A stretch of DNA of 64,000 nucleotides, taken from positions 320,001 to 384,000 of the forward strand of contig CAWCUS010000004.1 of NCBI GenBank assembly GCA_963798845.1, given 5' to 3'. The DNA is from an uncultured Gemmatimonadales bacterium. GTDB lineage: Bacteria; Gemmatimonadota; Gemmatimonadetes; Longimicrobiales; RSA9. The position numbers and the translations under genes were made by a program. The notes under the pieces were generated by a model. It was not told the origin of the DNA and did no database searches. It was given only the letters and a program-made list of their open reading frames with translations. Of this stretch, positions 3,884 to 54,221 are shown one piece after another (position 1 is the first letter of the stretch; each line of letters starts with the position of its first letter).

Positions 3884-4000
3884 CCGGGTCGCCGCAAGGC
3901 TGAGTGGTCCGCCCCGGGACCGTCGCCTGCCGCCGCCGCCGGATCATCGTGACCATCGGGTTCGCGGCGGTGGCCATGGCCCGCCGATCGACGGCTGCGA

Positions 4001-4993
4001 TCACCCCATCCCGCCCGGACGCCCGGAGCCGTACGACCCGGCGTCTTCGGGCGGCGGTACCCGGGACGCGTCCCGCCTCGAGCCTGCCTCGTCCGCCGAC
4101 GGCACCGGGCGTCGGCACCAGCCGAGGAGGACGAACGTGGCCGGCGCGACCAGCAGGGCCCACACCCCCGCCACGGTGGCCAGTACCAGGCTCAGGACGT
4201 ACGAGTCCGTCAGCTGGTCGCCCGCGGCGAGGGCGGCAATGCCCACGCCGCCGGTGAGCAGCATCGCGACCCTGCGACCCGGCGACTGCTCCCCTGGCTC
4301 GTACCTCACGAAGCGGTACTCCAGCGGGAGCGCGATGGCGAAGCCGGCGACGAGCCCGCCGGCGCGCCAGCGGTAGGGGTCCTCTCCGAAGAAGAGGAAC
4401 GGGCCGGCGATCACGAAGGCGAGCGCGAGCATGGCGGCGCCCGCGAACAGCGCGAACGGTCGCGCGGTCAGCCACGCTCGAACCGGGGGCCAGATCCACT
4501 GCACCAGGACGACGGCCACGGCCGCGAGCAGGACGGCGCCCACCACATCGCCCACGTAGTGGACGCCGAGATACAGCCGGCTGGTGCCGACCAGGACGGC
4601 GACGGCCGCGGGGATCGCCCACGAGACCCGGCCCTGGACGGCCAGCCAGCTCCACAGCGCCGTGGCCGTGGAAACGTGCCCGCTCGGGAATGACGAGACA
4701 CTGACGTGCTCGTACCTCACCAGACCCGGGGCATCGGGACGCGGCATGCTCACGAGCTGATTGAGGGCCATCTTCAACCCGCCCTCGACGACCACCACCG
4801 CCAGCAGCCCGTAGGCCACCCGGCGGCCCCACATCCAGAGGGCGATGCCGACGGCCAGGATGATCCCCCAGTCGATCCCAAGCAGCGAGAGCGCGATCCA
4901 GGGCTCCGGCCAGCCGAGGCCGAACAAGCGCTGCAGCGCGATGATCGGCCCCGGGTCGAACAGGATGGGGATCTGGGTCACGTCTCCGGTCAC
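4001..4993 (-). CDS. PAP2-family membrane phosphatase
   Basis: K-x6-RP-like KMALNQLVSMPRP, SFPSGH and SRLYLGVHY motifs; GTG start overlaps the upstream stop (GTGA). Confidence 0.85.
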   Translation of the reverse strand: MTGDVTQIPILFDPGPIIALQRLFGLGWPEPWIALSLLGIDWGIILAVGIALWMWGRRVAYGLLAVVVVEGGLKMALNQLVSMPRPDAPGLVRYEHVSVSSFPSGHVSTATALWSWLAVQGRVSWAIPAAVAVLVGTSRLYLGVHYVGDVVGAVLLAAVAVVLVQWIWPPVRAWLTARPFALFAGAAMLALAFVIAGPFLFFGEDPYRWRAGGLVAGFAIALPLEYRFVRYEPGEQSPGRRVAMLLTGGVGIAALAAGDQLTDSYVLSLVLATVAGVWALLVAPATFVLLGWCRRPVPSADEAGSRRDASRVPPPEDAGSYGSGRPGGMG

Positions 4994-5544
4994 GCAGTCG
5001 TGAGGAGCACGCCGGCCAGCAGCGTGGCGGCCCACAGCCAGGCGCTGCGGATGGAGGCGCGGGCGAGCGGCGCCCACTCGTCGTCGGGGGTGGGGCCCGG
5101 ATCGGCGACGGCCGGGGCCGCGGCGTCGCCCGCGTCGTCGTGTCCGCGCGTGGCAAACAGCCGGCCCACGTGCCGTTCCATCACGCGTCCGTTCGCGACC
5201 AGCACCCCGAGGAGGGTCATCTTCACCCAGAAGATCCAGGACGGGAGGAATCTCGGGACGTCCGAGAGGAGCAGGCCGATGCCGGCGAGCATGCCGAGGG
5301 CGAGGCTCGCGAGCACGAACCGGTGAGTCCGGCGCCAGTCACGGAGCGCGCGGATGCGCCGCGTCCGGGACGCTCGTCGGGCTCGAACGATCTTCCGGTC
5401 CGCGCCCAGGGCGAGGCCGGCGGCCGACACGACCGCGGCCAGGTGGCCGTACAGCGCCACGGCCTGTACGGCCGCGCTGCTCCCGTACAGCTCCGCCCAG
5501 GTTTCGACCCATCTCGCCACTGGGGTCACAGCGACCGTCACCAT
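4990..5544 (-). CDS. Hypothetical 4-TM membrane protein
   Basis: Hydrophobic helices, FWVKMTLLGVLVANG motif; coupled to the PAP2 gene. Confidence 0.7.
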   Translation of the reverse strand: MVTVAVTPVARWVETWAELYGSSAAVQAVALYGHLAAVVSAAGLALGADRKIVRARRASRTRRIRALRDWRRTHRFVLASLALGMLAGIGLLLSDVPRFLPSWIFWVKMTLLGVLVANGRVMERHVGRLFATRGHDDAGDAAAPAVADPGPTPDDEWAPLARASIRSAWLWAATLLAGVLLTTA

Positions 5545-5861
5545 GTAAGCCTAAAGAGCGCGGCTGACCGCGCTCAGCCCGCACGGATGCGCCAAAAGCG
5601 CTCTCGCGCGACGAAGCTAGCTGCCGCGCCCGACCCGCGCGACTTTCAATGGCGTGCACGGACGGGCTCGTGTGCGGGCTCGACGCGCCCGGTGAACGGC
5701 CCGAGCACCGAGGGGCCGCGGCCCGTGTGCGCGGCTACCAAACTCTCGCCGAACCCTCCGGGGCAAGTCCGGACTTTCCTCCCCCGACGCGCCGTGGACC
5801 CGTACTTGCACCCGGCTCCCCCAGTTGCACAAGTGCCGCTTCCCGATACAGAGAGGGAACC

Positions 5862-6119
5862 ATGAACATCATCTGGTGGATCGTCGTTGGCCTCGTCGCC
5901 GGTGCCCTGGCCAAGTGGATCATGCCCGGCGACGACCCGGGCGGGATCATCATCACCATCCTGCTCGGCATCGCCGGCGCGTTGCTCGGCGGCTGGATCT
6001 TCACCCTGCTCGGGATCGGCGGCGGGATCGTCGTCACGATCGTGGGCGCCGTCATCGGCGCGCTGATCCTGCTCTGGCTGTACCGGATGTTCACGGGCCG
6101 GCGGCACAGTACGGCCTGA
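5862..6119 (+). CDS. GlsB/YeaQ/YmgE family (transglycosylase-associated) membrane protein
   Basis: MNIIWWIVVGLVAGALAKWIMPG...GIAGALLGG...GAVIGALILL; GAGAGGG RBS. Confidence 0.9.
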   Translation: MNIIWWIVVGLVAGALAKWIMPGDDPGGIIITILLGIAGALLGGWIFTLLGIGGGIVVTIVGAVIGALILLWLYRMFTGRRHSTA

Positions 6120-6432
6120 CGCCGCAGCGCGGGGGTACCCTCCCGCGCGGGATCCGGCGGGGTGTTCCTCCTCGAGCGCCGGGCCGAGGAGGAACGCCTG
6201 GCCGTGGCTGGCCCCGCTCTTCATCACCCGGCGGGACGACAGAGCTGTGGCCAGGTCCGGAGCCACGGCCCCGCAGATCGCCGCCGAGGTGGCCGTGACC
6301 CAGGAGGTCACGACCTGGGCTGAAGTTCCGGACGATCCGGACGAAAGCACTGGCGGCCGTTGATCGGGCACCAGCCTCGCTCGACGACCGAGCGGACTTG
6401 ATTTCGCCACTCCGTCCCGAGAAGCTTCGGAC

Positions 6433-6753
6433 ATGGGCGTCTTCGAGTTCGTCATCATCCTGGTCGCGATCGGCACCCTCGGGAAGGCCGCCGTGGCAGT
6501 CGGCGGGCCGCTCCTGGACCAAACGGGCGAATACCTGCGTGCGTCCGCCGCAGAGCGGCGGGCGCGGCGCGAGAGGCTCGAATCCGGCGCGACGCTTTCT
6601 CCCGACACCGTCGAGGAGCTGGAGCGGCGGCTGACCCGCATCGAGGATCGGCTCGACTTCCTCGAGGAGCTGCGGGCTCCGACGGAGCGGAAGGCGCTTC
6701 ACGGCTCTCCTGCGCACCCGGCTGCCGGCGAGCGAGACGGCCCGGCGGCGTAG
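6433..6753 (+). CDS. Small hypothetical protein (N-terminal TM plus coiled coil)
   Basis: MGVFEFVIILVAIG..., ELERRLTRIEDRLDFLEEL coiled coil. Confidence 0.7.
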   Translation: MGVFEFVIILVAIGTLGKAAVAVGGPLLDQTGEYLRASAAERRARRERLESGATLSPDTVEELERRLTRIEDRLDFLEELRAPTERKALHGSPAHPAAGERDGPAA

Positions 6754-7086
6754 AGCCCGGGTGCCGTCGGCGCGGCCGCGCCGATGATGCCGCCGCTCGC
6801 GGGTTCGCTGGCCACCTTCGTCGGGACCTACCTGATCGCGGACTTCGTGGGGTGAACACCTGCACGCCACCGGCCGCTTCCGTCGGGTCCAGTTCCGCGA
6901 CCCTCCCGCCGGGTGTCCGGTTCCAGACGGCATCGTACCGGGAGCGGACAGCACGCGCGCGGCGGGGGACCATTCTCAGCGCCGGAATTCCGCGTGCCGG
7001 AGCGCTCGGCGAGGCGTCCGGCCGATCGGGCACGCGTCTTCCCTACGGAAGCGCGGCTGAAGCCCGGGACATGCCGAGGAGGACCG

Positions 7087-9471
7087 ATGGGGAGACTGGC
7101 CGATGTGGCGCAGGCGCTCCGGACGCTGCGCCGGCGCCCGGGTCAGAGCGCGGTGGTCGTGCTGATCCTGGCGCTCGGGATCACATCGACGGTGGCGGTC
7201 TACAGCATCGTTTCCGCGGTGGTGCTGCGGCCGCTCCCGTTCGCTTCGCCGGAAGCGCTGGTGCGCGTGCGGCAGACCGACCCGGACAACGGCATCGCGC
7301 TCTTCCAGGGCGCCTCCGGGCCCAGCTTCCAGGACTGGCAGCGCGAGTCCACCACGCTCGTGTCCATGGGGGCGTACTCGGGACCCGGCGGCTCGATCCT
7401 CGCCGCCGCGGGCGAGCCCCGGCGCGTGCAGCGTACCAGCGTGACCGGCGACTTCTTCGGCACGCTCGGCCTGACGCCCGCTCTCGGGCGGCTCCTCCGG
7501 CCCGGAGACACGGAAGCCGGCGCCCCGCGGGTGGCGGTTCTCTCGTCCGGCTTCTGGCAGCGTGAGCTGGGCGGCGCCCCGGACGTGCTGGGCCGCAACC
7601 TGGTGCTGGACGGCGAGTCGTACGAAGTGGTGGGCGTGGCGCGGCCCGGCGGGACGTATCCCGAGGGCACCGCCGTGTGGACGGCCATCCCGGCGGACGC
7701 CGAGTACTTCACGGTCCGCTACGCGCACATCCTCGGCGTGGTGGGGCGGCTCGCGCCCGGCGCGACGGCGGCCACGGCTGAGGACGAGCTGGACGGGATC
7801 CTGGCCGAGGTGCCCGGCTACACGCCCCGCTCGCGTGTGACCGGTCTGAAGGCCGAGATGGTCGGCGACGTCCGCACGCCCATGCTGGCGCTGCTCGGCG
7901 CGGTGGTGTTCGTGCTGCTGGTCGCGGCGGCGAACGCGGGCAACCTGCTGCTGGCGTGGTCGGCCAGGCGGGGAAGGGAGCTGGCGATCCGGAGCGCGCT
8001 CGGGGCGGGGCGTCGCCGGCTGGCGGCGCAGCTCGTCGCCGAGAGCACGCTGCTCGCCCTCGCCGCCGGGCTGCTCGGCACCCTCCTGGCCGCCTGGCTC
8101 CTCGACGCACTCGTGGCGCTCGCCCCCGGCGACCTGCCCCGCGGCGCCGACATCCGCATCGACGCCGCCGTCCTCGCCTTCGCCCTTGCCGTCTCCCTCC
8201 TCACCGGCGTGCTCACCGGCCTGATCCCGGCGCTCCGCGTCCTCGCCCGCGGCCCCGGCGACGGGCTGCGCGACGGGGATGCCAGGGCCGGGAGCCGCTC
8301 CGGCCGGCGGGTGGTCGGCGGGTTCGTCGTCGCCGAAGTCGCGCTCAGCGTCATGCTTCTCTCGGGCGCCGGCCTCCTGGTGCGGAGCTTCCTGCGCATC
8401 ACGGCCGTGGACCCGGGCTTCCGGGCCGAGCACGTGACCACGTTCGAGTTCGCGCTCCCCGGTTACGAGTACGGCGAGCCGTGGCAGCTGCGACGCTTCG
8501 GCGACGGGCTGCTGGAGCGCGTGCGCGCGCTGCCCGGCGTGGAGGGCGCGGCGGTGGGGCAGAACCTCCCGGTGGCCGGATCGAGCATGATCACGCCCGC
8601 GCTGGTGGAGGGGCGGGCCACGGACAACGCGCCGCGCGTGCAGGTGGTCTCCGTTTCAGACGACTACTTCCGCACCATGGGGATGCAGGTCGTGGCCGGA
8701 CGCGCGTTCACGTCCGGCGACGACGGCGGTGCGCCCCCCGTCGCCATGGTGGACGAGGCGTTCGCCCGTCTCTACTTCGACGGCGACGACCCCGTCGGCC
8801 GGCGCGCCCGCACCTACTTCGGCGAGCCGGTCATGCGGGACATCGTGGGCGTGGTGGCGTCGGCCGCCCACGAGTCGCTCACCGAGCCGCCGCAGCCCAC
8901 GTTCTACTACCCGGCCGCCCAGATGCCGCCGGCTTCCGGGCGCCTGGTGGTGCGTTCGACGCTCGCCACCCCCGCGCTGGTGGCCGCGGTCCAGGCGGCC
9001 AGGCGCGAAGTGGACGCCACCGTCCCGTTCGGCGACATCGCCACCATGGAGCAGCTGCTCCAGCGCACCACTGCGGCGCCCCGCTTCTATGCCACCACGG
9101 TGGCCGCGTTCGCGCTTCTCGCCCTCGTCCTCGCCGTCGCCGGGTTCGTCGCCGTCCTGTCCCAGGTGGTCACCCGGCGCCGCCGCGAGATGGGCGTGCG
9201 CCTCGCCGTCGGCGCCCGCCCCGCCGAGCTGGTCGGCCTCGTCGTCGGCTACGGCATGCGACTCACGGCCCTCGGACTCGCCCTGGGCCTCGCCGGCGCA
9301 CTCGCCGTCGGACGGCTCCTCGCCGGACTCCTCTTCGGCGTCGGGCCGGCCGACCCGCTGGTGCTCGGCGGCGTGGCCGCGCTCCTCGCCGGCGTGGCGC
9401 TGCTCGCCGCGTGGGCCCCCGCCCGGCGGGCCGCCGGCACGGACCCCATGGCCGCGCTGCGGGCGGAATGA
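7087..9471 (+). CDS. ADOP-type duplicated ABC permease (MacB_PCD/FtsX x2)
   Basis: LALGITSTVAVYSIV, RELAIRSALGAGR, REMGVRLAVGA, terminal DPMAALRAE; GAGGAGG RBS. Confidence 0.92.
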   Translation: MGRLADVAQALRTLRRRPGQSAVVVLILALGITSTVAVYSIVSAVVLRPLPFASPEALVRVRQTDPDNGIALFQGASGPSFQDWQRESTTLVSMGAYSGPGGSILAAAGEPRRVQRTSVTGDFFGTLGLTPALGRLLRPGDTEAGAPRVAVLSSGFWQRELGGAPDVLGRNLVLDGESYEVVGVARPGGTYPEGTAVWTAIPADAEYFTVRYAHILGVVGRLAPGATAATAEDELDGILAEVPGYTPRSRVTGLKAEMVGDVRTPMLALLGAVVFVLLVAAANAGNLLLAWSARRGRELAIRSALGAGRRRLAAQLVAESTLLALAAGLLGTLLAAWLLDALVALAPGDLPRGADIRIDAAVLAFALAVSLLTGVLTGLIPALRVLARGPGDGLRDGDARAGSRSGRRVVGGFVVAEVALSVMLLSGAGLLVRSFLRITAVDPGFRAEHVTTFEFALPGYEYGEPWQLRRFGDGLLERVRALPGVEGAAVGQNLPVAGSSMITPALVEGRATDNAPRVQVVSVSDDYFRTMGMQVVAGRAFTSGDDGGAPPVAMVDEAFARLYFDGDDPVGRRARTYFGEPVMRDIVGVVASAAHESLTEPPQPTFYYPAAQMPPASGRLVVRSTLATPALVAAVQAARREVDATVPFGDIATMEQLLQRTTAAPRFYATTVAAFALLALVLAVAGFVAVLSQVVTRRRREMGVRLAVGARPAELVGLVVGYGMRLTALGLALGLAGALAVGRLLAGLLFGVGPADPLVLGGVAALLAGVALLAAWAPARRAAGTDPMAALRAE

Positions 9472-9499
9472 CGCCCTTCCGCCGGGCGCTGCGGCCGGC

Positions 9500-11899
9500 A
9501 TGACCGCGCTCCGCGCCGCGATCAGGGTCTTCCGCACCCGTCGACGGTTCGCGTTCTGGACCGCGGCCGCGTACGCCCTGGGCATCGCCGCCGTGACCAC
9601 CGTGTTCTCTCCGCTCGACGACGTCCTCCTCGACCCGCTGCCATGGCCGGCCTCGGGACGGGTGGTCGGAGTGTGGGAGCGCTTTCCGCAGGTGACGGAT
9701 GGCCGCATCCCCGCGGCGCCGGCGAAAGTGGCCGCCTGGCGGGGCGCCACCGACGTGTTCGATGCGGTGGCCGCGTGGCGGCTCGACGACATGGACTTTT
9801 CCGACGCCGGGGAGGGAGCCGGCGATGGCGAGCCGGAGGTCGTCCAGGTGGGGCGTGTCCAGGCCGACCTGTTCCGGCTGCTGGGCATCCGCCCCACTCA
9901 GGGCCGCGGCTTCGCGGCTGGCGAGGATGAGCCTGGTGCCGAGCACGTGGTGGTGCTCACGAACGGCTTCTGGCGCGAGCGCATGGGCGGACGTCGGGAC
10001 GTGCTTGGGCGCACGCTCCGGCTGGCGGGCGAGCCGTTCCGGATCATCGGCGTCCTGCCGCCCGACGAGGCGTTCCCGGCCGACGCCCGCCTCCTGGTTC
10101 CGCTGGCGTTCGACGCGCCGGACAGCCGGGCTGCGCACGCATACCGGGTGCTGGCCCACCTTGCGCCGGGGGTCACATTGGCCCGGGCGCAGGCCAGGGT
10201 GTCGGAGATGGCGGCGGCCGCGGCGTCGGAGTTCCCGGAGACCGACGCGGGGTGGGAGGCCGAGGTGGTCCCGCTCCGCGACCAGCTCGTGGGCGACGTG
10301 CGCGGGCTTCTCCTCCTCTTCTTCGGCGCCGGCGCCCTGGTCTTCCTGGTGGGCGGGGCCAATGGCGCCGGGCTGCTCCTGGCCCGCTCGGCCGGGCGGC
10401 GGCGGGAGCTGGCGCTCCGGGCTGCGCTGGGCGCCTCCCGGCGTCGCCTGGTGGCCGACCTCGCCGCGGAGAGCGTGCTGCTGGCAGCGGTGGGCGGCGC
10501 CGCGGGCTTCTTCCTGGCGTGGGTGGCCGCCGGGGCGATCCGGACGTGGATGCCCCTCCACGTCCCGGGCCTCGCCGGCGGCTCGTTCGACGCCACGGTC
10601 TTGGCGTTCGCCGCGGGCGCCACGCTCCTGGGCGGCCTCGCGTTCGGGCTCCTCCCCGGGCTCCAGGCTTCCGGCACCGGCCCCATGGACGCGTTGCGCG
10701 AGGGGGTCACCGGCACACCCGGGCGCGGCCGCATCCTGCGCGCGGTGGTGGTGGGCGAGGTGGCGCTGGCGGCGCTCCTGCTGGTGGGCGGCGGCCTCTT
10801 CCTCCGGAGCGCGTGGGAAGTGTCGTCCGTCGACCCCGGGTTCCGCCCGCGCGGGCTGCTCACCCTCGAGCTCCGGCCCCCGCGCTGGCGCTACGACAGC
10901 GAAGCCCGCCGCGCCGCGCTCTACCAGGACGTGCTCTCGGCCGTGCAGTCCATGCCGGGGGTCGAGTCCGCGGCGCTCACCAACTACCTGCCCCTCGGCG
11001 GGCGCTCGGACTCCTTCCGCTACCTGGTCGAGGGGCGGCCCGCGCCGGCTTCGCCGGACCTGCAGCTGACGGGCATGCGGGTGGTGAGCCCCGGCTACTT
11101 CGGAACCATGGGAATCCCGCTGGTCTCCGGTCGCGCCCTCACGCCCGGCGACCGCGCGGACGGGGAGCTCGTGGCCGTGGTGAACGGCGCCATGGCACGC
11201 GAGGTCTGGCCCGCCGGCGATGCAGTGGGCGCCCGCGTCAGCATGAACGGTCAGGAAGGCCCTTGGGTGCGCGTGGTCGGCGTGGTCGGCGACGTCCACC
11301 ACGGCGGCCTCGACGAGCCCGCCTCCCCCGAGCTCTTCGTCCCGCTGGCGCAGGAGGTGTGGCCGTTCGCAGCCCTGGTGGTCCGCGCCGGCTCCGATCC
11401 CGCCGCCCTCGCCGCCGCCGTGCGCGACGTGGTCCGCCGCGTCGACCCCGCACTGCCCATCGCCGACGTCCGCACCGGCTCCGGTCTGCTGCGCGCCGCC
11501 ACCGCCCCCTGGCGGGCCCAGGCCACCCTCGTCCTCGTTTTCGCCGCCGCCGCGCTCCTGCTCGCCATCACCGGCGTGTACGGCCTGCTGGCTTGGGTCG
11601 TGGAGCAGCGCATCCCCGAGATGGCCATCCGCCAGGCACTCGGCGCCGCCCGCCGCGACGTGCGCACCCTCGTGGCCCGCGAAGCGCTCCGCCTGGCGCT
11701 CATCGGCGCCGCCCTGGGCCTGGTCGCCGCCGCAGCGCTGTCGGCGCTCGTGCGCACGCTGCTGTTCGGCGTGCGGCCGCTGGACCCGTGGAGCTACGCC
11801 GCAGCGGCTGGGCTGCTCACCCTGGTCGCGCTCCTGGCCGCGCTCGGGCCGGCCAGGCGGGCGGCGCGGACGGAGCCCGCCTCTTCGTTGAGGGTGTAG
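9500..11899 (+). CDS. ADOP-type duplicated ABC permease (second copy)
   Basis: RELALRAALGASR, VDPGFRP, EMAIRQALGA, terminal EPASSLRV. Confidence 0.9.
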   Translation: MTALRAAIRVFRTRRRFAFWTAAAYALGIAAVTTVFSPLDDVLLDPLPWPASGRVVGVWERFPQVTDGRIPAAPAKVAAWRGATDVFDAVAAWRLDDMDFSDAGEGAGDGEPEVVQVGRVQADLFRLLGIRPTQGRGFAAGEDEPGAEHVVVLTNGFWRERMGGRRDVLGRTLRLAGEPFRIIGVLPPDEAFPADARLLVPLAFDAPDSRAAHAYRVLAHLAPGVTLARAQARVSEMAAAAASEFPETDAGWEAEVVPLRDQLVGDVRGLLLLFFGAGALVFLVGGANGAGLLLARSAGRRRELALRAALGASRRRLVADLAAESVLLAAVGGAAGFFLAWVAAGAIRTWMPLHVPGLAGGSFDATVLAFAAGATLLGGLAFGLLPGLQASGTGPMDALREGVTGTPGRGRILRAVVVGEVALAALLLVGGGLFLRSAWEVSSVDPGFRPRGLLTLELRPPRWRYDSEARRAALYQDVLSAVQSMPGVESAALTNYLPLGGRSDSFRYLVEGRPAPASPDLQLTGMRVVSPGYFGTMGIPLVSGRALTPGDRADGELVAVVNGAMAREVWPAGDAVGARVSMNGQEGPWVRVVGVVGDVHHGGLDEPASPELFVPLAQEVWPFAALVVRAGSDPAALAAAVRDVVRRVDPALPIADVRTGSGLLRAATAPWRAQATLVLVFAAAALLLAITGVYGLLAWVVEQRIPEMAIRQALGAARRDVRTLVAREALRLALIGAALGLVAAAALSALVRTLLFGVRPLDPWSYAAAAGLLTLVALLAALGPARRAARTEPASSLRV

Positions 11900-45115: not shown

Positions 45116-45145
45116 TTGTTGCGCCTCCGGGCTGGCAGATACAAT
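45116..45145 (+). promoter_or_regulatory. Candidate sigma-70 promoter of the RiPP cluster
   Basis: TTGTTG-N18-TACAAT about 46 nt upstream of the PqqD ATG. Confidence 0.3.
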
Positions 45146-45191: not shown

Positions 45192-45461
45192 ATGGTAGAC
45201 CTGGAGCGACGCCCTCGCCCTCACGATCGGGTCGTGACGCAGGAGGTCGAGGACACCGTGGTCCTGCTGGACCCGACCAGCGGGGAGTACTTCTCGCTCT
45301 CCGACACCGGCCGGCGCGTCTGGCAGCTCTGCGACGGCACGAGGGCCGCGAGCGAGATCTGCGAGGCCCTGGCGCGAGAATACGATGCGCCCCTGCCGGT
45401 GATCCAGGAGGATGTCCTGCAGCTTCTTTCCGAGCTGATGGACGCGCGACTCCTGGTATAG
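45192..45461 (+). CDS. PqqD-family RiPP recognition element (lasso B1-like)
   Basis: EVEDTVVLLDPTSGEYFSLSDTGRRVWQLCDG...EICEALAREYD...DVLQLLSELMDARLL, typical PqqD/RRE pattern. Confidence 0.9.
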   Translation: MVDLERRPRPHDRVVTQEVEDTVVLLDPTSGEYFSLSDTGRRVWQLCDGTRAASEICEALAREYDAPLPVIQEDVLQLLSELMDARLLV

Positions 45462-45468
45462 GGACCCG

Positions 45469-45945
45469 ATGCGGGCAGGCGTCGCACCGCGCCGTCTGAG
45501 GGCGGCCGCTCTGTCGGCCCGGGTCATGGCCGTCGCTACGGCCGTGCCCCTGCTCATGCGCCTCCCGCTTCCCCGGCTGGCTCGCCTGCTGGACCGGGCG
45601 ACCCGCCGTTCAGCGCCCTCCGAAGATCCGGAGCGCTCAGCCGGGCGCATCGCGGAGTGTTACGACCATCTTGCCGCCAACGGCTTCGTTCTCCGGCCCG
45701 GCTGCGTCACACGCGGCCTCACCCTCTTCTTCTTTCTGCGCCGCGCCGGCCTGGACGTCCAGCTCGTGTTCGGGATCGGTCGACCCAGGGGGGAGATGGT
45801 CGGGCACTGCTGGCTGGAACGAGCTGGAGCACCGTATCTCGAGCGCCGTGATCCGCGCCCACTTTACGCGGAGACCTACCGCCTTCCGTTGTCGGCGCCA
45901 CGACCGCCACAACCGATGCGGCCCCGGGCGCCGGGGGTGGAATGA
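45469..45945 (+). CDS. Lasso peptide B2-type transglutaminase-like leader peptidase
   Basis: GCVTRGLTL...LVFGI...GHCWLE (catalytic Cys and His of the B2 family). Confidence 0.88.
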   Translation: MRAGVAPRRLRAAALSARVMAVATAVPLLMRLPLPRLARLLDRATRRSAPSEDPERSAGRIAECYDHLAANGFVLRPGCVTRGLTLFFFLRRAGLDVQLVFGIGRPRGEMVGHCWLERAGAPYLERRDPRPLYAETYRLPLSAPRPPQPMRPRAPGVE

Positions 45946-46919
45946 CCCACTGCTACGGTCTGGCGGATGTCTCGTTCTCGGTGCAGGCCGATTCCGCCGA
46001 AGTCGTCGAGCTGCTGGACAGGCGGCTGAGGATCCTGCGGGCGAAGGGCGACGCCGGCCCCGCTCTGGTGCTGCGCTTGTCTCCGACCGTCCCGCCTCTG
46101 GCGGATCCGACGGGAGCTCTGGACGACCTGCGGACGGTGTACGACCCGCCGGCCGGGGAGGTGCTGTATTCGGAATCTTCCGATCTCCTCGTCCTGCGCC
46201 AGTCCGGCAGGGACCGGGGGTGGAGCGCGCCCCGGCGCCGCTGCGCGTGGATCGACCCGGGCGACGACGCCGGCAGCCGGTGGCGGGCGACCCATCCACT
46301 TGCGACGCTCTGCCTGTCCGAGCTCCTACGTTCGCAGGGCCTCTTCCCGGTCCACGCCGCCGCGCTGTCCCTCGACGGGAGAGGACTGCTGGTCGCAGGG
46401 AGAAGCGGCTCAGGGAAATCGACCCTCGCGCTCGCGCTCCTGAGGGCCGGGTTCGGTTTCCTCGGAGATGATACGTGCTTCGTCCGTGCCGAGCCCGGGG
46501 GCATGACGGTCTACGCGTTTCCGGACGAGATCGACGTGGCGGACGCCACCGTCCGCATGTTTCCGGAGCTCGAGCCCCTTCTGGAACGCCCCCGCCGCCC
46601 CGGTGCCGCCAAGCGCCCCCTTCTGCCGGAGGAGGTGTATCCGGTCGACTTCGTCCTTCACTGCCGCCCGGACATCCTGCTGTTCCCGGTGAGGGAGAGG
46701 GGGACCAGCCGACTGGAGCCGATGAGCGCGACAGCCGCCCTGCTGGAGCTGGCGCCCGGCATCCTGCTCACGCACCGGACCCGGGCGCAGGCCCACCTCG
46801 ACGCCCTCGGCACGCTCGTCGCCGGGAGCCGGTGCTTCCGGCTGTTCGCCGGGCAGGACTTCGAAGCGTTGCCGGAGCGGCTGGCCGGGCTCCTGGACCG
46901 GGAGCGAAAGGAACCATGA
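45942..46919 (+). CDS. HPr-kinase-like P-loop kinase
   Basis: PVHAAAL, GRSGSGKST Walker A, FLGDD; ATGA-coupled. Confidence 0.85.
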   Translation: MTHCYGLADVSFSVQADSAEVVELLDRRLRILRAKGDAGPALVLRLSPTVPPLADPTGALDDLRTVYDPPAGEVLYSESSDLLVLRQSGRDRGWSAPRRRCAWIDPGDDAGSRWRATHPLATLCLSELLRSQGLFPVHAAALSLDGRGLLVAGRSGSGKSTLALALLRAGFGFLGDDTCFVRAEPGGMTVYAFPDEIDVADATVRMFPELEPLLERPRRPGAAKRPLLPEEVYPVDFVLHCRPDILLFPVRERGTSRLEPMSATAALLELAPGILLTHRTRAQAHLDALGTLVAGSRCFRLFAGQDFEALPERLAGLLDRERKEP

Positions 46920-48190
46920 TGAGCGCGTCGCCCGTCAGCAGCTTCTCGCCGGTTGGCGCCCTCCTGGACGTCCTCGCCTTCGCGCCCTCGGGGCGCTCGC
47001 GGCCGCCACGGTCGCCCCTCGAATGGAGGCTGCTGATCCGCGCGGCGGAGCGGACCGAGCTCGAGCCCATGCTGTACCATGCGCTCACGGCGTCCGGAGC
47101 CAAGCAGGAGAGGTCGGTGCCTGAGGAAGCGCGCGCACACCTCCAGGCATTGTACGGGCGGAGCGCCCTCCGCAACGGGTTGATTCTGAACGCGTTGCAG
47201 GAGGCGCTACGGGCTTTGGATGACGCGGGTGTCGACGTCGTGGTCCTCAAGGGCGCATACCTCGCAGGCGCCGTATACGATTCCCCCGCTCTCCGTCCCA
47301 TGAACGACGTGGACATCATGGTCCGCAGATCGTCCGTCGATCGGGCCGTCCGGACCCTGCGGGACACCGGCTGGGCAGAGAGGGAAGAGGCAGGAGGGAC
47401 CCGCAAGCACCACGTGCCGGCATTCGACGGCCCGGGTGGTACTCTTCTCGAGCTTCACTGGACGCTGGAGCTGCCGTCGGCCCCGTTCGTGCTGGATATC
47501 GAGGGCGTCTGGGACCGATCCGTCGCAACGTCCCTGGCCGGTGCGCCTGCCCGATGTCTGGCGGTAGAAGATCTCCTGCTGCACCTGAGCCTGCACGCCG
47601 GCTATCACCACCGCTGGGGCGAGACGGTGCTCACGGAGCTCCCGCTCCGCTGGGTGTTCGACGTCGCGCTGGTCCTGGACCGGCTCGGCCCCACCATCGA
47701 CTGGCCTCGGCTCAGCCACCGGGCTCGCGCCTGGCGCGCATCCAGCTTCCTGTACTGCGCGATCTCCCTCGCCGCGGCGTTGTTCTCGGTATCCACGGCG
47801 GAGGGCGCGCTCGATGGGATCGACCACACGCCCGAGGACGAGCGGATCGTCGCCGTTCTCGAACGTCTGCTCGGCACGGACACCCGCGCCACGGCGCCTC
47901 ACGCGTTACGAGCCTGGCGGCGCAGCGACAGTGCGGGCGAAGGGGCGCGCGCCATCCTCCGCTCGATCTTCCCGCGCCCCGGCCGGATCGCCCAGATGTA
48001 CGGTCTGCCACCGGGCAGCCGCCGGGTCTGGCTCCTCTATCCCGCACGCGTGGTCGACCTGATCGTGCGACGCGGCGCGAAAGCGTTCGGCCTGATCGTC
48101 CGGACCCCGCGCGGGCGGGAGCTCCTGGAGCGCGAATCCGCCAAGCGCATGGTGGCGCAGTGGGTCGACTCCGCCACCCCCCGTGACTGA
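46916..48190 (+). CDS. Nucleotidyltransferase family protein (NTP_transf_5-like)
   Basis: VVLKGAYLA...RPMNDVDIMV...ELHW...EDLLLHLSLH; ATGA-coupled. Confidence 0.85.
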   Translation: MMSASPVSSFSPVGALLDVLAFAPSGRSRPPRSPLEWRLLIRAAERTELEPMLYHALTASGAKQERSVPEEARAHLQALYGRSALRNGLILNALQEALRALDDAGVDVVVLKGAYLAGAVYDSPALRPMNDVDIMVRRSSVDRAVRTLRDTGWAEREEAGGTRKHHVPAFDGPGGTLLELHWTLELPSAPFVLDIEGVWDRSVATSLAGAPARCLAVEDLLLHLSLHAGYHHRWGETVLTELPLRWVFDVALVLDRLGPTIDWPRLSHRARAWRASSFLYCAISLAAALFSVSTAEGALDGIDHTPEDERIVAVLERLLGTDTRATAPHALRAWRRSDSAGEGARAILRSIFPRPGRIAQMYGLPPGSRRVWLLYPARVVDLIVRRGAKAFGLIVRTPRGRELLERESAKRMVAQWVDSATPRD

Positions 48191-48345
48191 CCTGTCGGCG
48201 CCACGACATTGTTGCTTGCCTTCGACATGGAACGGGATCCGGAAGCACCTCGACCTCGTGCGCGGTGCGAGCCGCCCTCGGGAACAGGACTTGCGGCCAC
48301 CCCCTCGTCCACCTGCCGTCCGACCATCCACACGGGAGGCTGTCC

Positions 48346-48426
48346 ATGAGGACCCGCAAGCGGTACGTCAAGCCGCAGCTGCGTCGCCTGGGACTGCTCC
48401 GGCGCCTGACGCAGTTCACCTTCTAG
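48346..48426 (+). CDS. Lasso-leader-type RiPP precursor peptide, 26 aa (MRTRKRYVKPQLRRLGLLRRLTQ-FTF)
   Basis: Not in ORF track. GGGAGG RBS at 48334-48339; YxxPxL-xxx-G-xxxxx-T leader motif; directly downstream of the RRE/B2 cluster; followed by a hairpin. Confidence 0.85.
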   Translation: MRTRKRYVKPQLRRLGLLRRLTQFTF

Positions 48427-48447
48427 CGGTCCCTGCGATCCGCTCCA

Positions 48448-48487
48448 TTCAGCGCCCCCGGCAAATGGACCGGTCGGGGGCGCTGAA
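48448..48487. terminator. Strong hairpin after the precursor (terminator or transcript stabiliser)
   Basis: TTCAGCGCCCCCG ... CGGGGGCGCTGAA 13-bp perfect stem between convergent genes; no U-tract. Confidence 0.6.
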
Positions 48488-48545
48488 CCATTCAGGCGAC
48501 GACGTTGCCGTCCTCCGCCCATTCCGGCGGCCGGGTGGTGGCCGC

Positions 48546-48938
48546 TCAGGTCCCGGACACGCGGGCGAAGCCGGCGTCGGGGTGCCGGTGAACGGAAACG
48601 GTGGCGTTGCCGAGGGCGCGGGCCTTGGCGTTGAGCCGCTCGACGACGTCATCGTCGACGTCGCCGAAGACGGAGATGGAGAGGATGTCGAGGAGGTCGC
48701 CGAATCTGCGGAACTCATCGTCGCCGACGGTCATGTGGTGGGCCAGGGCGGCGGAGTCCGGGTGCTCGCTGATGACCGTCATCTCGCGCCGCTGGTCGTC
48801 GACGAAGAAGCGGTAGGAGAGAACGTGGGGGTTGTTGGCACGGATGAAGGCGGACAGGCGCTCGATGGCCGGCCGGAGTTCGGGCAGCCGTCCCTGACGG
48901 ATGCGCGAGCGGTCGATGTAGAGTATGGGTGTGTTCAT
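48546..48938 (-). CDS. Hypothetical protein (dimeric alpha+beta barrel / ABM-like)
   Basis: SYRFFVD...EHPDSAALAHH...VFGD pattern; 130 aa. Confidence 0.65.
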   Translation of the reverse strand: MNTPILYIDRSRIRQGRLPELRPAIERLSAFIRANNPHVLSYRFFVDDQRREMTVISEHPDSAALAHHMTVGDDEFRRFGDLLDILSISVFGDVDDDVVERLNAKARALGNATVSVHRHPDAGFARVSGT

Positions 48939-50670: not shown

Positions 50671-52035
50671 TTGATCTCCATCATCGTGCGAACGAAGAAC
50701 GAGGAGCGCTGGATCGGCTCGTGCCTCGAGGCGATCGGTCGCCAGACCCGCACCGATTTCGAGGTCGTGCTGGTCGACAACGAAAGCAGCGACAGGACGG
50801 TCGCGAAAGCGCTCCAATATGGCGTGAGATTGGTGTCGATCCCGGAATTCAAGCCAGGCGCTGCGATCAATCGGGGAATCGAGGCGGCCGACGGCGACGT
50901 CATTGTGTGTCTATCGGGACACTGCATCCCGGTCGACGAGCACTGGCTGGCGAACCTGGTCGCCGGTCTCGACGACGAAACCGTTGGCGGTGTCTACGGA
51001 AGGCAGGAGCCCCTGGCCTTCACACCGGATCTCGACAAGCGCGACCTCCTGATCACGTTCGGGCTCGACCCGCGGGTCCAGGTAAAAGACAGCTTCTTCC
51101 ACAACGCGAACAGCGCCTTCCGCAAGTCGACCTGGGAAAGGTTCCCCTTCGACGAGGAAGTGTCCAACATCGAAGACCGCATCTGGGCGAGTCAGGTCCA
51201 GGGCGCGGGGATGAAGATCCTCTACGAGCCCGACGCGAGCGTCTATCATCACCACGGGATCCACCACAGCGGTGATCGTGTGCGCTGCGGCAATATCATC
51301 CGGATCCTGGACACGACGGGTCAGGAAGGGGTTCGCACCGCCGACAACAAGATCGATGCGCGGACTCTCAACACGGTGCTGGTGATCGCCGTGCGCGAGG
51401 AGGGGCTGAGACGACTCGGAGACAGGCCGCTCTACGAATACGCCATCGAACACGCCAGGTGCTCCGAGCTCGTGCGCACGATCGTGGTCTCGACCGACAG
51501 CCCGAGCGTGGCAGCCGAAGCCTCCGCGGCCGGGGCGGATCTGGTGCTGACGCGAGAGGAGGAGGAATCGCGCTTCGACGTCATTCTCGAGCTGATGATG
51601 CAGTCCTCGCTGCACAAGCTGGAGGACCGGGGCATCATTCCCGACATTCTCGTGATGCTCGAGACGACGTTCCCGTTTCGGGACCCCACGCTCATCGACA
51701 AGCTTATCTACCAGTATGTCGAGGGCGGCTTCGACACGGTGATTCCGGCGCGGATCGAGTTCAACTCCTGCTGGATGGAGGAGGAGGGCGCCTACCGCCG
51801 CGTCGACGAAGGGTACGTCGCGAGGCAATTCAAGAAACCCTTCTATACGGGTCTCAAGGGCCTCTGTTGCGTGTGCTCTCCGGCCACCGTCCGGCAGGGC
51901 CAGCTGTTTGGCGAGAACGTCGGGCTCTACAAGCTGACCGACGCGGTCCATTCGATCGAGGTCCGGTCCGATGACGACGTCGCCCTGGCCGAGACGGTCA
52001 TGGCGAGCCCCCTGTTCGCGACTCGCGTCGGGTAG
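50671..52035 (+). CDS. GT2 glycosyltransferase fused to an acylneuraminate cytidylyltransferase-like domain
   Basis: ISIIVRTKNEE, VDNESSDRT, IED (GT2); LGDRPLYEYAIEHA, IVVSTDS, LETTFPFR, SIEVRSDDD (NeuA/KdsB-like); TTG start. Confidence 0.8.
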   Translation: MISIIVRTKNEERWIGSCLEAIGRQTRTDFEVVLVDNESSDRTVAKALQYGVRLVSIPEFKPGAAINRGIEAADGDVIVCLSGHCIPVDEHWLANLVAGLDDETVGGVYGRQEPLAFTPDLDKRDLLITFGLDPRVQVKDSFFHNANSAFRKSTWERFPFDEEVSNIEDRIWASQVQGAGMKILYEPDASVYHHHGIHHSGDRVRCGNIIRILDTTGQEGVRTADNKIDARTLNTVLVIAVREEGLRRLGDRPLYEYAIEHARCSELVRTIVVSTDSPSVAAEASAAGADLVLTREEEESRFDVILELMMQSSLHKLEDRGIIPDILVMLETTFPFRDPTLIDKLIYQYVEGGFDTVIPARIEFNSCWMEEEGAYRRVDEGYVARQFKKPFYTGLKGLCCVCSPATVRQGQLFGENVGLYKLTDAVHSIEVRSDDDVALAETVMASPLFATRVG

Positions 52036-52049
52036 GGAGCGGCCTCGGG

Positions 52050-53027
52050 ATGCATCGTCTCGGCATCGTCGGTCTCGGTCACGTGGCGGCGCACCAGGTC
52101 GCCGCGCTCGCCCACGGCGAGGCACTCGAGCTGGTGGCGGTATGTGACCCTGACGGAGAGCGCCTGGCCGTGCTCGGTGAGGATCGGAAGACGTACACCG
52201 ACATCGCCGACATGTTGTCGGAGTCGGACCTCGACGTCGTCATGGTGGCCACACCCAATCATCTGCACGTGCAGCACGGCATCCAGGTGCTGGAGGCGGG
52301 CAAGTGGCTCGTAATGGAAAAGCCCCTGGCCGAGACGCAGGCCGGTTTCGACGCCGTCGCACGGGCCCGGGAGCGGTGTGGAGGACACTGCACCATCGCG
52401 TTGCACGCCGCGTTCGGGCAGGAGGTCGAGTGGTTCTGCCGATCCGGGACGAGGCAGGAGCTCGGGGCCGCTGAAATCGACTCGTTCACGGGCCAGTTCT
52501 ACGATCCCTACTTCGAGAACGGACGTTTGCAGGCCCGGGCCCTCTCCCTGGGTGGGGCGTGGATGGACAGTGGGATCAACGCGCTCAGCGTCATCGCGCG
52601 CATGCTCCCGCTCGAGCGCCTGGTGGTGCGCGACAGCCGCATGACGCGCGTCGCCAACGTGGACTGCACCGAAGTGCAGGGCACCGTGGACTTCGAGGTC
52701 CGCAACGGAGACTTCGTGGGGTCGGGGCGCATCGACACCAACTGGACGCTCGGGCGCGACATGAAGGTCACGACGGTTCGCCCGCGCGGGTCCGACAGGA
52801 GGATCATCCTCGACCACTCCGCCCAGCAGGTTCGAGTCCGGTCGCCTGAAGGCGAGGAGGTCGTCTTCGCGTGCGGCAACGGACTGCCTCGACTCACCAA
52901 CCACTACATCGGCGTCTTCGGCAATGTGGCACGGCAGCTCGAAGTGGGCCAGGACAATTTCGAACTCGCCAGGGCGTTGCACGGCCTGCTGTACGAGGCC
53001 GAGGGTCGCCAGGCGCCCACGTTCTGA
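52050..53027 (+). CDS. Gfo/Idh/MocA-family oxidoreductase
   Basis: GIVGLGHVA, VATPNHLH, MEKPLA, GGAWMDSGIN. Confidence 0.88.
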   Translation: MHRLGIVGLGHVAAHQVAALAHGEALELVAVCDPDGERLAVLGEDRKTYTDIADMLSESDLDVVMVATPNHLHVQHGIQVLEAGKWLVMEKPLAETQAGFDAVARARERCGGHCTIALHAAFGQEVEWFCRSGTRQELGAAEIDSFTGQFYDPYFENGRLQARALSLGGAWMDSGINALSVIARMLPLERLVVRDSRMTRVANVDCTEVQGTVDFEVRNGDFVGSGRIDTNWTLGRDMKVTTVRPRGSDRRIILDHSAQQVRVRSPEGEEVVFACGNGLPRLTNHYIGVFGNVARQLEVGQDNFELARALHGLLYEAEGRQAPTF

Positions 53028-53036
53028 AGCTCGATC

Positions 53037-54221
53037 CTAGCCCTTCCCGAGCAGCCGCCCGAGAACGCGCTTCACGAACCGGGAAGCGACCACGAGACCG
53101 GGCAGGGGATCGTACCAGCGGAACCACTGGCCGCTCCTTGGCCGGAAGAGCAGCGCAACCTCCGTCGCCAGGATGCGCAGGAGCGGTACGCCGTCTTTGC
53201 GCATGGACCGGATGTCCGTGTACGCATTGTGGAAGTACAGTCCTTCGCGCTGGCTGCTTCCCGAACGCGAAGCCGGCTCGCCGGCCGCGATCCGGTAGGT
53301 GTTCCACACTGTGGGAAGACCGCACGCTTCGTCGAAACCCACCTCGCCGCCGATCCGGGGGTTCAGCTCGATGTACTTGAACATCCCGTCGCGCTCGTCC
53401 CATCGGTACTCGATGCCGACATGGCCCACGTAGTTCAGGGCTTTCCCGAGGTCGGCCGCGAGCGTGAGGATGTCCTGGTTGACGCGGCTGATCGAGAAGG
53501 TGCTGGTCCCGAAGTGAGGCGGCATGGTCCGCAGCTTCTGGCGCACCAGGCAGTCGAGCAGCTCCGAGTTTTCGTCGAACGTGCCGGAGCACACCCACGA
53601 GTTGTCGTCGCGCCCGGGGATGATCTCCTGGGCGAGCAGGACTGGGAGGGCGTGGCCCCAGTCGTCGTAGAATCGCTGCAGCTCGTCCGCATCCTTCGCC
53701 GTCTGGACCTTCTCGGGGAAAACGGACCGCACGGCGAATGAATGGGGCTTGAAGATGATGGGGAACCGGAGCTGTCGAGAGAGCTCCTCCGGATGGGACG
53801 GCAGCTCGCGAATCGTCTTCGGGATGGCGAATCCGAGTGATTCGATGAGCGCGGTCTCCTTTCGCTTGTCGTTGAGCGCGTCCACCATCTCTCGCGGAGG
53901 CAACCTGAAGCGGAACCGCTTCCCGAGCTCCTCCTCGTTGGTGGACACCAGGGACACGAGCAGGTCGGAGGTGAAGAGCAGCACCGTCCCCTCGCCAGGA
54001 AGGCTCCGCAGGAGATTCAGGATCTCCCGCTCCTTCACGGCGACCTCATCCGCGTCACCGGGCACGACGTACTTCCTGACCGGATAACGCGAGTGCAGCA
54101 CGGGGTCGGTCTCGTCGAAGGCGATGGCGGTGACGCGGACCCCGCGGCGCGCGAGGGACCGGACCGTGCCGAGCCCACCGGGGCCGTGCGACACGACGAG
54201 CGCTGGCGGTAACGTGGCCAA
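53037..54221 (-). CDS. ATP-grasp carboxylate-amine ligase (D-aspartate ligase-like)
   Basis: LGTVRSLARRGV, FPIIFKP, AQEIIPG, IEYRWDERDGMFKYIELNPR, DPLPG. Confidence 0.82.
   Translation of the reverse strand: MATLPPALVVSHGPGGLGTVRSLARRGVRVTAIAFDETDPVLHSRYPVRKYVVPGDADEVAVKEREILNLLRSLPGEGTVLLFTSDLLVSLVSTNEEELGKRFRFRLPPREMVDALNDKRKETALIESLGFAIPKTIRELPSHPEELSRQLRFPIIFKPHSFAVRSVFPEKVQTAKDADELQRFYDDWGHALPVLLAQEIIPGRDDNSWVCSGTFDENSELLDCLVRQKLRTMPPHFGTSTFSISRVNQDILTLAADLGKALNYVGHVGIEYRWDERDGMFKYIELNPRIGGEVGFDEACGLPTVWNTYRIAAGEPASRSGSSQREGLYFHNAYTDIRSMRKDGVPLLRILATEVALLFRPRSGQWFRWYDPLPGLVVASRFVKRVLGRLLGKG

Follow-up and report, generated by a model that had tools for sequence, protein, structure and literature searches.

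A lasso-type leader with a predicted three-residue core, encoded beside a cyclase-less enzyme cassette

A gene of 26 codons in the window, by which we mean the whole 64,000-nucleotide stretch of DNA analyzed here, encodes a lasso-type leader followed by a predicted core of only three residues, Phe-Thr-Phe. It is accompanied by genes for a PqqD-type RiPP recognition element (B1), a lasso-type leader peptidase (B2), an HprK-like peptide kinase (K), and a PF14907 nucleotidyltransferase (N). We are highly confident that it is a real, selected precursor-type gene tied to these four enzymes. With considerably more reserve, we lean toward the view that it is the genuine precursor of a cyclase-less pathway that descended from phosphorylated lasso machinery and would yield a modified Phe-Thr-Phe.

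A 26-codon gene with a lasso-type leader

The open reading frame (ORF) at positions 48346 to 48426 of the plus strand translates to MRTRKRYVKPQLRRLGLLRRLTQFTF-stop, and a Shine-Dalgarno (SD) motif, GGGAGG (48334 to 48339, plus strand), lies 6 nt 5′ of its ATG at 48346. An earlier note on this DNA had pointed out both the ribosome binding site and the ORF, and had described the product as a complete lasso-type leader with a cut predicted after Q23 and a core of Phe-Thr-Phe alone. The spacing agrees with that description exactly. When Q23 is set as position −1, residues Y7, P10, L12, G16, and T22 fall at −17, −14, −12, −8, and −2, the same spacing that is given for B1/B2 recognition in the cited part of the report on Bsf-type peptides (PMC10368454). 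The predicted leader (M1 to Q23) occupies 48346 to 48414, the putative core 48415 to 48423, and the TAG stop codon 48424 to 48426, all on the plus strand. The note had also called the leader very basic and free of acidic residues, and the 26-residue peptide indeed contains nine Arg/Lys and no acidic residue.

Several features set the peptide frame apart from its surroundings. Its GC3 is 0.93, compared with 0.65 to 0.69 in the long ORFs that overlap it; these ORFs, on either strand, had no Pfam match and a GC3 of the noncoding type. A pattern made from the leader alone matched once in the window and in none of 100 shuffled versions, and when all six frames of the complete genome were scanned, 10 strings fit the loose motif, among which MRTRKRYVKPQLRRLGLLRRLTQFTF alone resembles a leader peptide. 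Between the peptide gene and a convergent ABM-like gene (48546 to 48938, minus strand) lies a GC-rich, 15-bp hairpin (48448 to 48487). Its folding energy of −38.9 kcal/mol (z = −3.7) was equaled by none of 200 shuffles. Contigs from two DNA runs matched the window perfectly where they aligned; the stretch from 48351 to 48494 lies outside their coverage.

A fixed C-terminal end in a dispersed peptide family

The leader alone (Y..P.LRRLGLLRRLT) was back-translated into a DNA pattern, which left the tail free and, when run over the metagenome collection, matched 33 loci. At these loci, the identical leader is imposed by the pattern and has no bearing on selection. The small ORF ends in [RKS][FY][TS]F at all 33 loci, and the stop codon directly follows that Phe in 32 of them. 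A further relative was present in a genome of another genus of the same family (G009), where AAGGAGG precedes a GTG start and the product reads ..RRAYRKPHLRRLGLLRRLTRFTF-stop, with the end ...RLTRFTF. A hairpin, B1, and B2 lie 3′ of the G009 peptide gene, and its kinase gene and a PF14907-like gene are located on a second, overlapping contig. Across the 35 members (the 33 loci, the window, and G009), the predicted cores are FTF in 23, FSF in 9, and YTF in 3; the family form is therefore [FY][TS]F, with Thr (26 members) or Ser (9 members) at core position 2 and aromatic residues on both sides. This interchange suggests that the hydroxyl group is the conserved feature and points to hydroxyl-directed modification.

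The position of the stop codon is kept in 34 of the 35 members, much more often than chance would allow, with TAG, TAA, and TGA all in use, and both ACC and ACG serve as Thr codons. An ATG or GTG stands behind an SD-like motif in 33 members, and the remaining two end at contig edges. The family peptides are 23 to 34 residues long, carry Arg at position −1 in most relatives (Gln in the window), and come from high-GC (64 to 76%) genomes and metagenome contigs. The relatives' kinases at the metagenome loci are 31 to 50% identical to the window kinase. A fixed end, interchangeable stop codons, and diverged kinases together read as the signature of selection on the C terminus of the peptide. The sole member without a stop after the tripeptide, at locus L141 (5043 to 5138, plus strand), has seven residues more (..RLTRYTFSPVFPDM); B1 and B2 are apparently fused at this locus, and genes for proteins with an Ig-like domain flank the peptide gene on both sides.

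The window and G009 peptides are 73% identical, compared with 43% for the two kinases. This difference, the nine Arg/Lys without an acidic residue, and the frequent location of the loci among polysaccharide and surface-protein genes would fit a different product, namely, the 23-residue, Arg-rich, amphipathic N-terminal part (..LRRLGLLRRL..), acting for example by binding membranes or polyanions. FTF, perhaps phosphorylated, would then serve as a cap, and the molecule would stay inactive until B2 removes it. We judge this improbable, since the conserved positions are the B1/B2 recognition positions, which is a sufficient explanation of their conservation, and since most of the leader invariance is imposed by the search pattern. 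We also know of no precedent for such a use of a lasso-type leader.

When the DNA from 48150 to 48560 was compared with 40 relatives, the sole relevant match was the peptide stretch of G009. A peptide search of 401 genomes of the class gave, besides the window, weak matches (best E value, 0.005), and those among them that carry the leader motif are ordinary lasso-type precursors with long cores. When the ORF was read with an N-terminal extension and searched at the protein level, no candidates were returned, as genes so small are seldom called. A relaxed leader pattern, which does match the window, had no match in the five genomes behind loci L050, L051, and L053 to L055. A kinase orthologue at an E value of ≤1e-20 was present in only 2 of the 73 genomes of the window's family, those of the window and G009, and the distribution within this family is patchy.

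The B1-B2-K-N cassette

The four enzyme genes are tightly packed on the plus strand and are separated from the peptide gene by a 155-nt spacer downstream of N. B1 (45192 to 45461, or possibly from an ATG at 45144) matched the lasso_PqqD model NF033530 at 5.7e-13 with 48.9 bits, below the 70-bit cutoff, and TIGR04353 at 6.5e-6 with 27 bits against a cutoff of 35. A profile of 11 family B1 proteins matched TbiB1 (5v1u/5v1v) over its full length at an E value of 4.9e-21 and TfuB1 at 3e-7. B2 (45469 to 45945), a transglutaminase-fold Cys protease by its matches, scored 61.6 bits on NF033537 (lasso_biosyn_B2; cutoff, 33) and 7e-14 on PF13471. All 12 of the aligned FTF-linked B2 proteins retain the Cys (GC[LV]TRG), His (GHCW), and Asp (DPR) motifs.

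The start of K (45942 to 46919) overlaps the B2 stop codon (ATGA). K matched PF07475 at 7.6e-7 with 29.3 bits (below the cutoff of 33.3), TIGR04355 at 6e-13, and TIGR04352 at 1.5e-11, the last two also under their cutoffs. The P-loop G-x-G-K-[ST] and a DD motif are invariant across 28 relatives. In an exhaustive search of a library of 1.84 billion proteins, the kinase family had 213 representatives at an E value of ≤1e-30 and 2,076 at ≤1e-10. N (46916 to 48190), whose start overlaps the K stop codon, scored 200 bits on PF14907 (NTP_transf_5; 5.5e-59) and is directly followed by a small terminator-like hairpin (48193 to 48208, plus strand; a consensus match only). Among solved structures, the kinase had weak P-loop matches to HPr kinases only, and no relative was found for N or B2. 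With the B2 and kinase motifs intact and a B1 profile that matches TbiB1, the enzymes look functional as judged from their sequences.

The cassette contains no exporter, no ABC transporter was found among the ORFs scanned around it, and no S26 peptidase was found by Pfam among the ORFs of 41.6 to 54.2 kb; B2 would take that role. A few kilobases downstream, between 50671 and 54221, the window carries a sugar-related gene set consisting of a GT2 glycosyltransferase fused to a cytidylyltransferase domain (50671 to 52035), a GFO/IDH/MocA oxidoreductase (52050 to 53027), and an ATP-grasp protein (53037 to 54221, minus strand), reminiscent of the polysaccharide genes that accompany related peptide systems.

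In a tree of 25 kinase sequences, a branch with 100/100 support parts 21 cyclase-less kinases from 4 cyclase-linked ones. The 15 FTF-linked kinases form no clade of their own relative to the six other cyclase-less kinases in this tree. Pairs of kinase and PF14907 genes without a cyclase, mostly without B2 and some with PqqD, also occur in the collection of genome contigs (L050 to L058, L060 to L072, and others), in records from Deinococcota, Nitrospirota, Acidobacteriota, and Pseudomonadota. A scan of that collection with the kinase alignment yielded mostly distant K/N cassettes and no FTF-type peptide among the matches listed.

Absence of a lasso cyclase

The earlier note had held that the peptide cannot form a ring. 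The predicted core has neither Asp nor Glu, offers no acceptor at positions 7 to 9, and leaves no tail to thread, and neither the window nor its genome (4.26 Mb in six contigs, 96% complete) yielded a lasso cyclase. The two PF00733 matches in the genome are both ordinary glutamine-hydrolyzing AsnB proteins in sugar-transferase neighborhoods. They scored 443 and 361 bits on TIGR01536, above its cutoff, and 187.7 and 153.2 bits on the lasso cyclase model, against a cutoff of 525 bits. One of the two genes (G000:C2:790318-791370; L009, 6590 to 8415) contains one in-frame TGA, which could reflect a frameshift or an assembly error or mean that the gene is broken. A cyclase from a genome of the same family (G041), used as a tblastn query, had no match at any of the 33 metagenome loci. 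Likewise, no Asn_synthase was found among the ORFs scanned at 13 loci, for which the ORFs were picked by a GC3 heuristic and coverage is incomplete.

The G041 genome carries a canonical kinase-type lasso cluster on the minus strand (L047, G041:C19:36000-52000; ∼2230 to 10150). It comprises a precursor with an approximately 45-residue core ending in ..NRS, B2, an HprK-like kinase, an ABC-2 permease, an Asn-synthase-type cyclase of 655 amino acids, and a PF14907 protein, and it is a full-length counterpart of the window's cyclase-less set. Arrays of three to four neighboring lasso-type precursor genes were observed in three other genomes, on one strand in G373 (L012/L048) and G129 (L013/L049) and on both strands in G069 (L037). 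Their leaders follow Y.xPxL..(F/L)G..R.LT, and their cores are 30 to 45 residues long and contain Cys, many ending in Ser, Pro, or Asp. The G129 precursor set has an Asn-synthase-like gene beside it.

A core that cannot form a ring, a genome without a cyclase, and a complete cluster in a genome of the same family are what would be expected if the window gene were a decayed or truncated lasso precursor, or if an assembly indel hid a longer core. The earlier note had voiced the latter as a caveat, in which a one-base indel would conceal a core with Asp8, and had asked whether the stop is conserved in relatives. The same end residue is found in 34 of the 35 members, with three different stop codons and beside kinases so far apart in sequence that the divergence must be deep. 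Moreover, the B2 motifs are intact throughout, and SD motifs and a coding-type GC3 are present. We consider decay or a hidden core extremely improbable, and regard this reading as refuted by the comparative data; the caveat thus falls. The main points of the note are supported, and the short leader-plus-tripeptide architecture recurs in G009 and in 32 of the 33 metagenome loci, with the same apparent end point.

Linkage of the peptide to the enzymes and to surface proteins

At least one of B1, B2, K, and N lies beside the peptide gene in 15 of the 33 metagenome loci, as determined by tblastn with the window proteins as queries. The arrangement varies. With A denoting the peptide gene, the order is A-B1-B2-K-N in G009, L131, L137, and L146; B1-B2-K-N-A in the window and L142; N-B1-B2-K convergent with A in L115, L140, and L143; K-A-B1-B2-N in L117; and K-N-B1/B2-x-A in L141. 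The linkage thus survives rearrangement into five gene orders, which argues for a shared function of peptide and enzymes. In L120 (8801 to 11383), a gene with an Ig-like domain is located inside the cassette, between B2 and the kinase gene, and no PF14907 gene was detected there by tblastn.

None of the four enzymes was found in the contig sequence of the other 18 loci, 12 of which are contigs of 1.1 to 2.4 kb. The remaining six (L126, L128, L129, L130, L133, and L138) extend for approximately 1.0 to 8 kb on each side of the peptide gene. In L126, the peptide gene and an upstream domain gene lie between a gene for a complete 2-oxoacid dehydrogenase E2 and a fragment encoding 163 residues of an E2 catalytic domain (3952 to 5247 and 8169 to 8657), and the block looks as if it had been inserted.

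A gene for a large, secreted-looking protein lies directly upstream of the peptide gene on the same strand at 25 of the 34 nonwindow loci, with a gap of 2 to 108 nt (424 nt in L141). These surface proteins are of beta-helix, Big_1/IgGFc-binding, or NHL-like type and have in common an Ig-like domain of approximately 90 residues. It forms the C terminus of most of them, has a Cys close to either end, and follows the consensus ..TTPPSC..TG..GPPKQ..V.D..SGL...NGSV...TATK.NQ...WSF.A.DWAG...C. Examples are encoded in L115 (8121 to 9458, minus strand), L143 (6613 to 7920, plus strand), L129 (8091 to 9758, minus strand), L141 (3050 to 4618 and 5822 to 7732, both plus strand), and G009 (L040, 660 to 3332, minus strand). 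The domain matched no Pfam family at an E value of ≤0.001. It is predicted to fold as a seven-strand beta-sandwich (pLDDT, 79), for which the Atlas points weakly to Big_13/Big_3_2 clusters (score, 0.90) and a Foldseek search of the PDB gave no match at ≤0.001 (best E value, 0.059; TM score, 0.43). The domain-bearing loci often also encode PBP_like_2 proteins and an initiating sugar transferase (PF02397), and a common operon there consists of the PF02397 sugar transferase, a PBP_like_2 protein, the domain protein, and then the peptide.

At these 25 loci, the surface-protein gene is a closer neighbor of the peptide gene than the enzyme genes are. This pairing is left unexplained by a mechanism that ends in a free tripeptide, and it counts against that mechanism. 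It would be accounted for if the peptide were a free-standing leader that acts in trans, occupying B1 and thereby switching on B2, the kinase, and the transferase or directing them to another substrate, such as the surface proteins encoded upstream. In a variant of the same idea, the peptide itself would be handed to the surface proteins. In either case, F-[TS]-F would only fill the active site or serve as a handle. The six long loci that have the surface-protein pairing and no B1, B2, K, or N in their contig sequence also suit a leader in trans, as does a three-residue core, which is very small for a product. We nevertheless hold this explanation to be unlikely. The window genome has no homologue of the Ig-like domain (tblastn at 1e-4), and the domain is likewise missing from the compact operons L117, L131, L142, and L146; the unit of peptide and enzymes can therefore stand alone, as a five-gene operon. 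The strict [FY][TS]F tail with its T/S interchange, in addition, resembles a substrate site, and a leader gene that works in trans is not known to us from any lasso-type system.

Proposed pathway and its meaning

We return to the preferred reading, in which the gene encodes the precursor of a modified tripeptide. By analogy with characterized relatives, B1 would bind the part of the leader that contains Y-17, P-14, and L-12. The HprK-like kinase, aided by B1, would phosphorylate core position 2 (Thr25 here and Ser in a quarter of the relatives), and the PF14907 transferase might extend the phosphate, for example, with a sugar. B2 would cut after residue −1 (residue 23), two residues past Thr-2 in the numbering used here, and a modified linear Phe-Thr-Phe would be released without ring formation. 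As described in the cited parts of the respective reports, BsfK phosphorylates core Ser3, with B1 accelerating the kinase and assisting B2 (PMC10368454); in linear peptides, LppK attaches as many as four phosphates to core Ser3, and the LPP recognition element presents the peptide to the leader peptidase, which cuts the unphosphorylated precursor poorly (PMC13381572). In pseudomycoidin, the phosphate is extended with hexoses by PsmN, which is of the PF14907 type (PMC8498205).

Other observations count against this mechanism. LppK failed to phosphorylate an S3T variant (PMC13381572, part cited), whereas Thr is the candidate acceptor in 26 of the 35 cores here, and the paeninodin kinase is described as requiring a C-terminal Ser (PMC8498205, part cited), whereas the C-terminal residue here is Phe. 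The lack of an exporter in the cassette and the 18 of 33 loci without any of B1, B2, K, and N count against it as well.

In the literature searched, which included the peptide string as a query, no report was found in which a lasso-type leader precedes a core of three residues or in which a B2-containing cassette lacks a cyclase. We describe the system as a putative lasso-derived linear phosphopeptide pathway with an exceptionally small core; its output is probably a tiny modified linear peptide and not a lasso. More speculatively, it may represent a RiPP class of its own, whose core would be smaller than any other known from lasso-derived machinery. In such a class, a leader of approximately 20 residues would give rise to a phosphorylated, perhaps glycosylated or nucleotidylated, Phe-Thr/Ser-Phe that is tied in most carriers to Ig-like-domain surface proteins and polysaccharide loci by attachment, priming, or signaling. 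This broader proposal is tentative, and we would not call it probable.

Leader recognition by B1 and cutting by B2 are usually viewed as serving a cyclase. Here, B1 and B2 have long been kept in many lineages without one, next to a three-residue core. If the product is a phosphorylated or decorated tripeptide, the linear phosphopeptides, described in 2026 from Bacillota only, would extend to other phyla with a different protease. The peptide would also offer a minimal, easily synthesized substrate for working out the function of PF14907 transferases, and genome mining keyed on cyclases and on ORFs of >30 codons would be missing a whole family. The link to surface-protein and polysaccharide genes provides a handle on the biological role of these phosphopeptides.

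Comparison with known systems

Haft's "HPr-rel-A system" (TIGR04352 kinase, TIGR04353 PqqD) comprises the same three protein types. The window K and B1 match its models weakly (43.9 bits against a cutoff of 200 and 27 against 35, respectively). Cassettes of kinase and PF14907 genes without a cyclase are widespread among the matches listed, and a search of five genomes of this kind turned up no FTF-type peptide.

The closest parallels lie with the LPPs (LppA/K/B/S/D/N) of Bacillota (Popov et al., Nat Commun 2026, PMC13381572), as far as the cited part of that report describes them. Neither system has a macrolactam cyclase, and both combine a discrete RiPP recognition element that reads a YxxP leader with an HprK-like kinase and a PF14907-type NTP transferase. 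A hydroxyl residue lies near the cut site in each (the LPP phosphate is on core Ser3, and core position 2 is Thr or Ser here). Both are patchily distributed and frequently placed among polysaccharide genes, and the polysaccharide genes near the domain-bearing loci echo the capsular-polysaccharide setting reported for LPPs (PMC13381572). The differences are equally concrete. The LPP leader peptidase is the SpI/SipW-like serine peptidase LppS (S26), whereas a lasso-type B2 Cys protease is encoded here. LPP precursors have 35 to 200 residues, and the core of the one studied has 45, compared with 23 to 34 residues and a predicted core of three here. The leader motifs are YxxPxVLxHQxIxFETxxS and YxxPxLRRLGLLRRLTx, respectively; LPP clusters include an MsbA-like exporter, which the window cassette lacks; and LPPs are reported from Bacillota alone, whereas the FTF family is found in high-GC genomes and contigs.

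The Bsf-type phosphorylated lasso peptides of Bradymonas sediminis (Duan et al. 2023, PMC10368454, part cited) likewise have split B1/B2 proteins, an HprK-like kinase, an N gene in some clusters, and a Y-17/P-14/L-12 leader. The kinase target in Bsf is a core residue beside the cut site (Ser3), modified with the aid of B1, and the same is presumed for the window peptide. However, Bsf has a cyclase, a ring-forming Gly1...Asp8 core, and Ile at −2, whereas the FTF system has no cyclase, no acceptor, and Thr at −2. Paeninodin and pseudomycoidin also combine split B1/B2 proteins with tailoring by a kinase and a nucleotidyltransferase; they differ, according to the part of the report cited (PMC8498205), in being threaded lassos made by a cyclase, in coming from Bacillota, and in having kinases that need a C-terminal Ser.

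The FTF system thus has the lasso-type leader, with Y-17/P-14/L-12 and Thr-2, the PqqD-family B1, and a B2 with Cys, His, and Asp, and it departs from lasso systems in the absence of an Asn-synthase-like cyclase and of a core with an Asp/Glu acceptor. From LPPs it departs in peptidase type, precursor type, exporter, and taxon. Judged by its genes, it appears to work like a phosphorylated lasso or LPP pathway, yet it is a member of neither.
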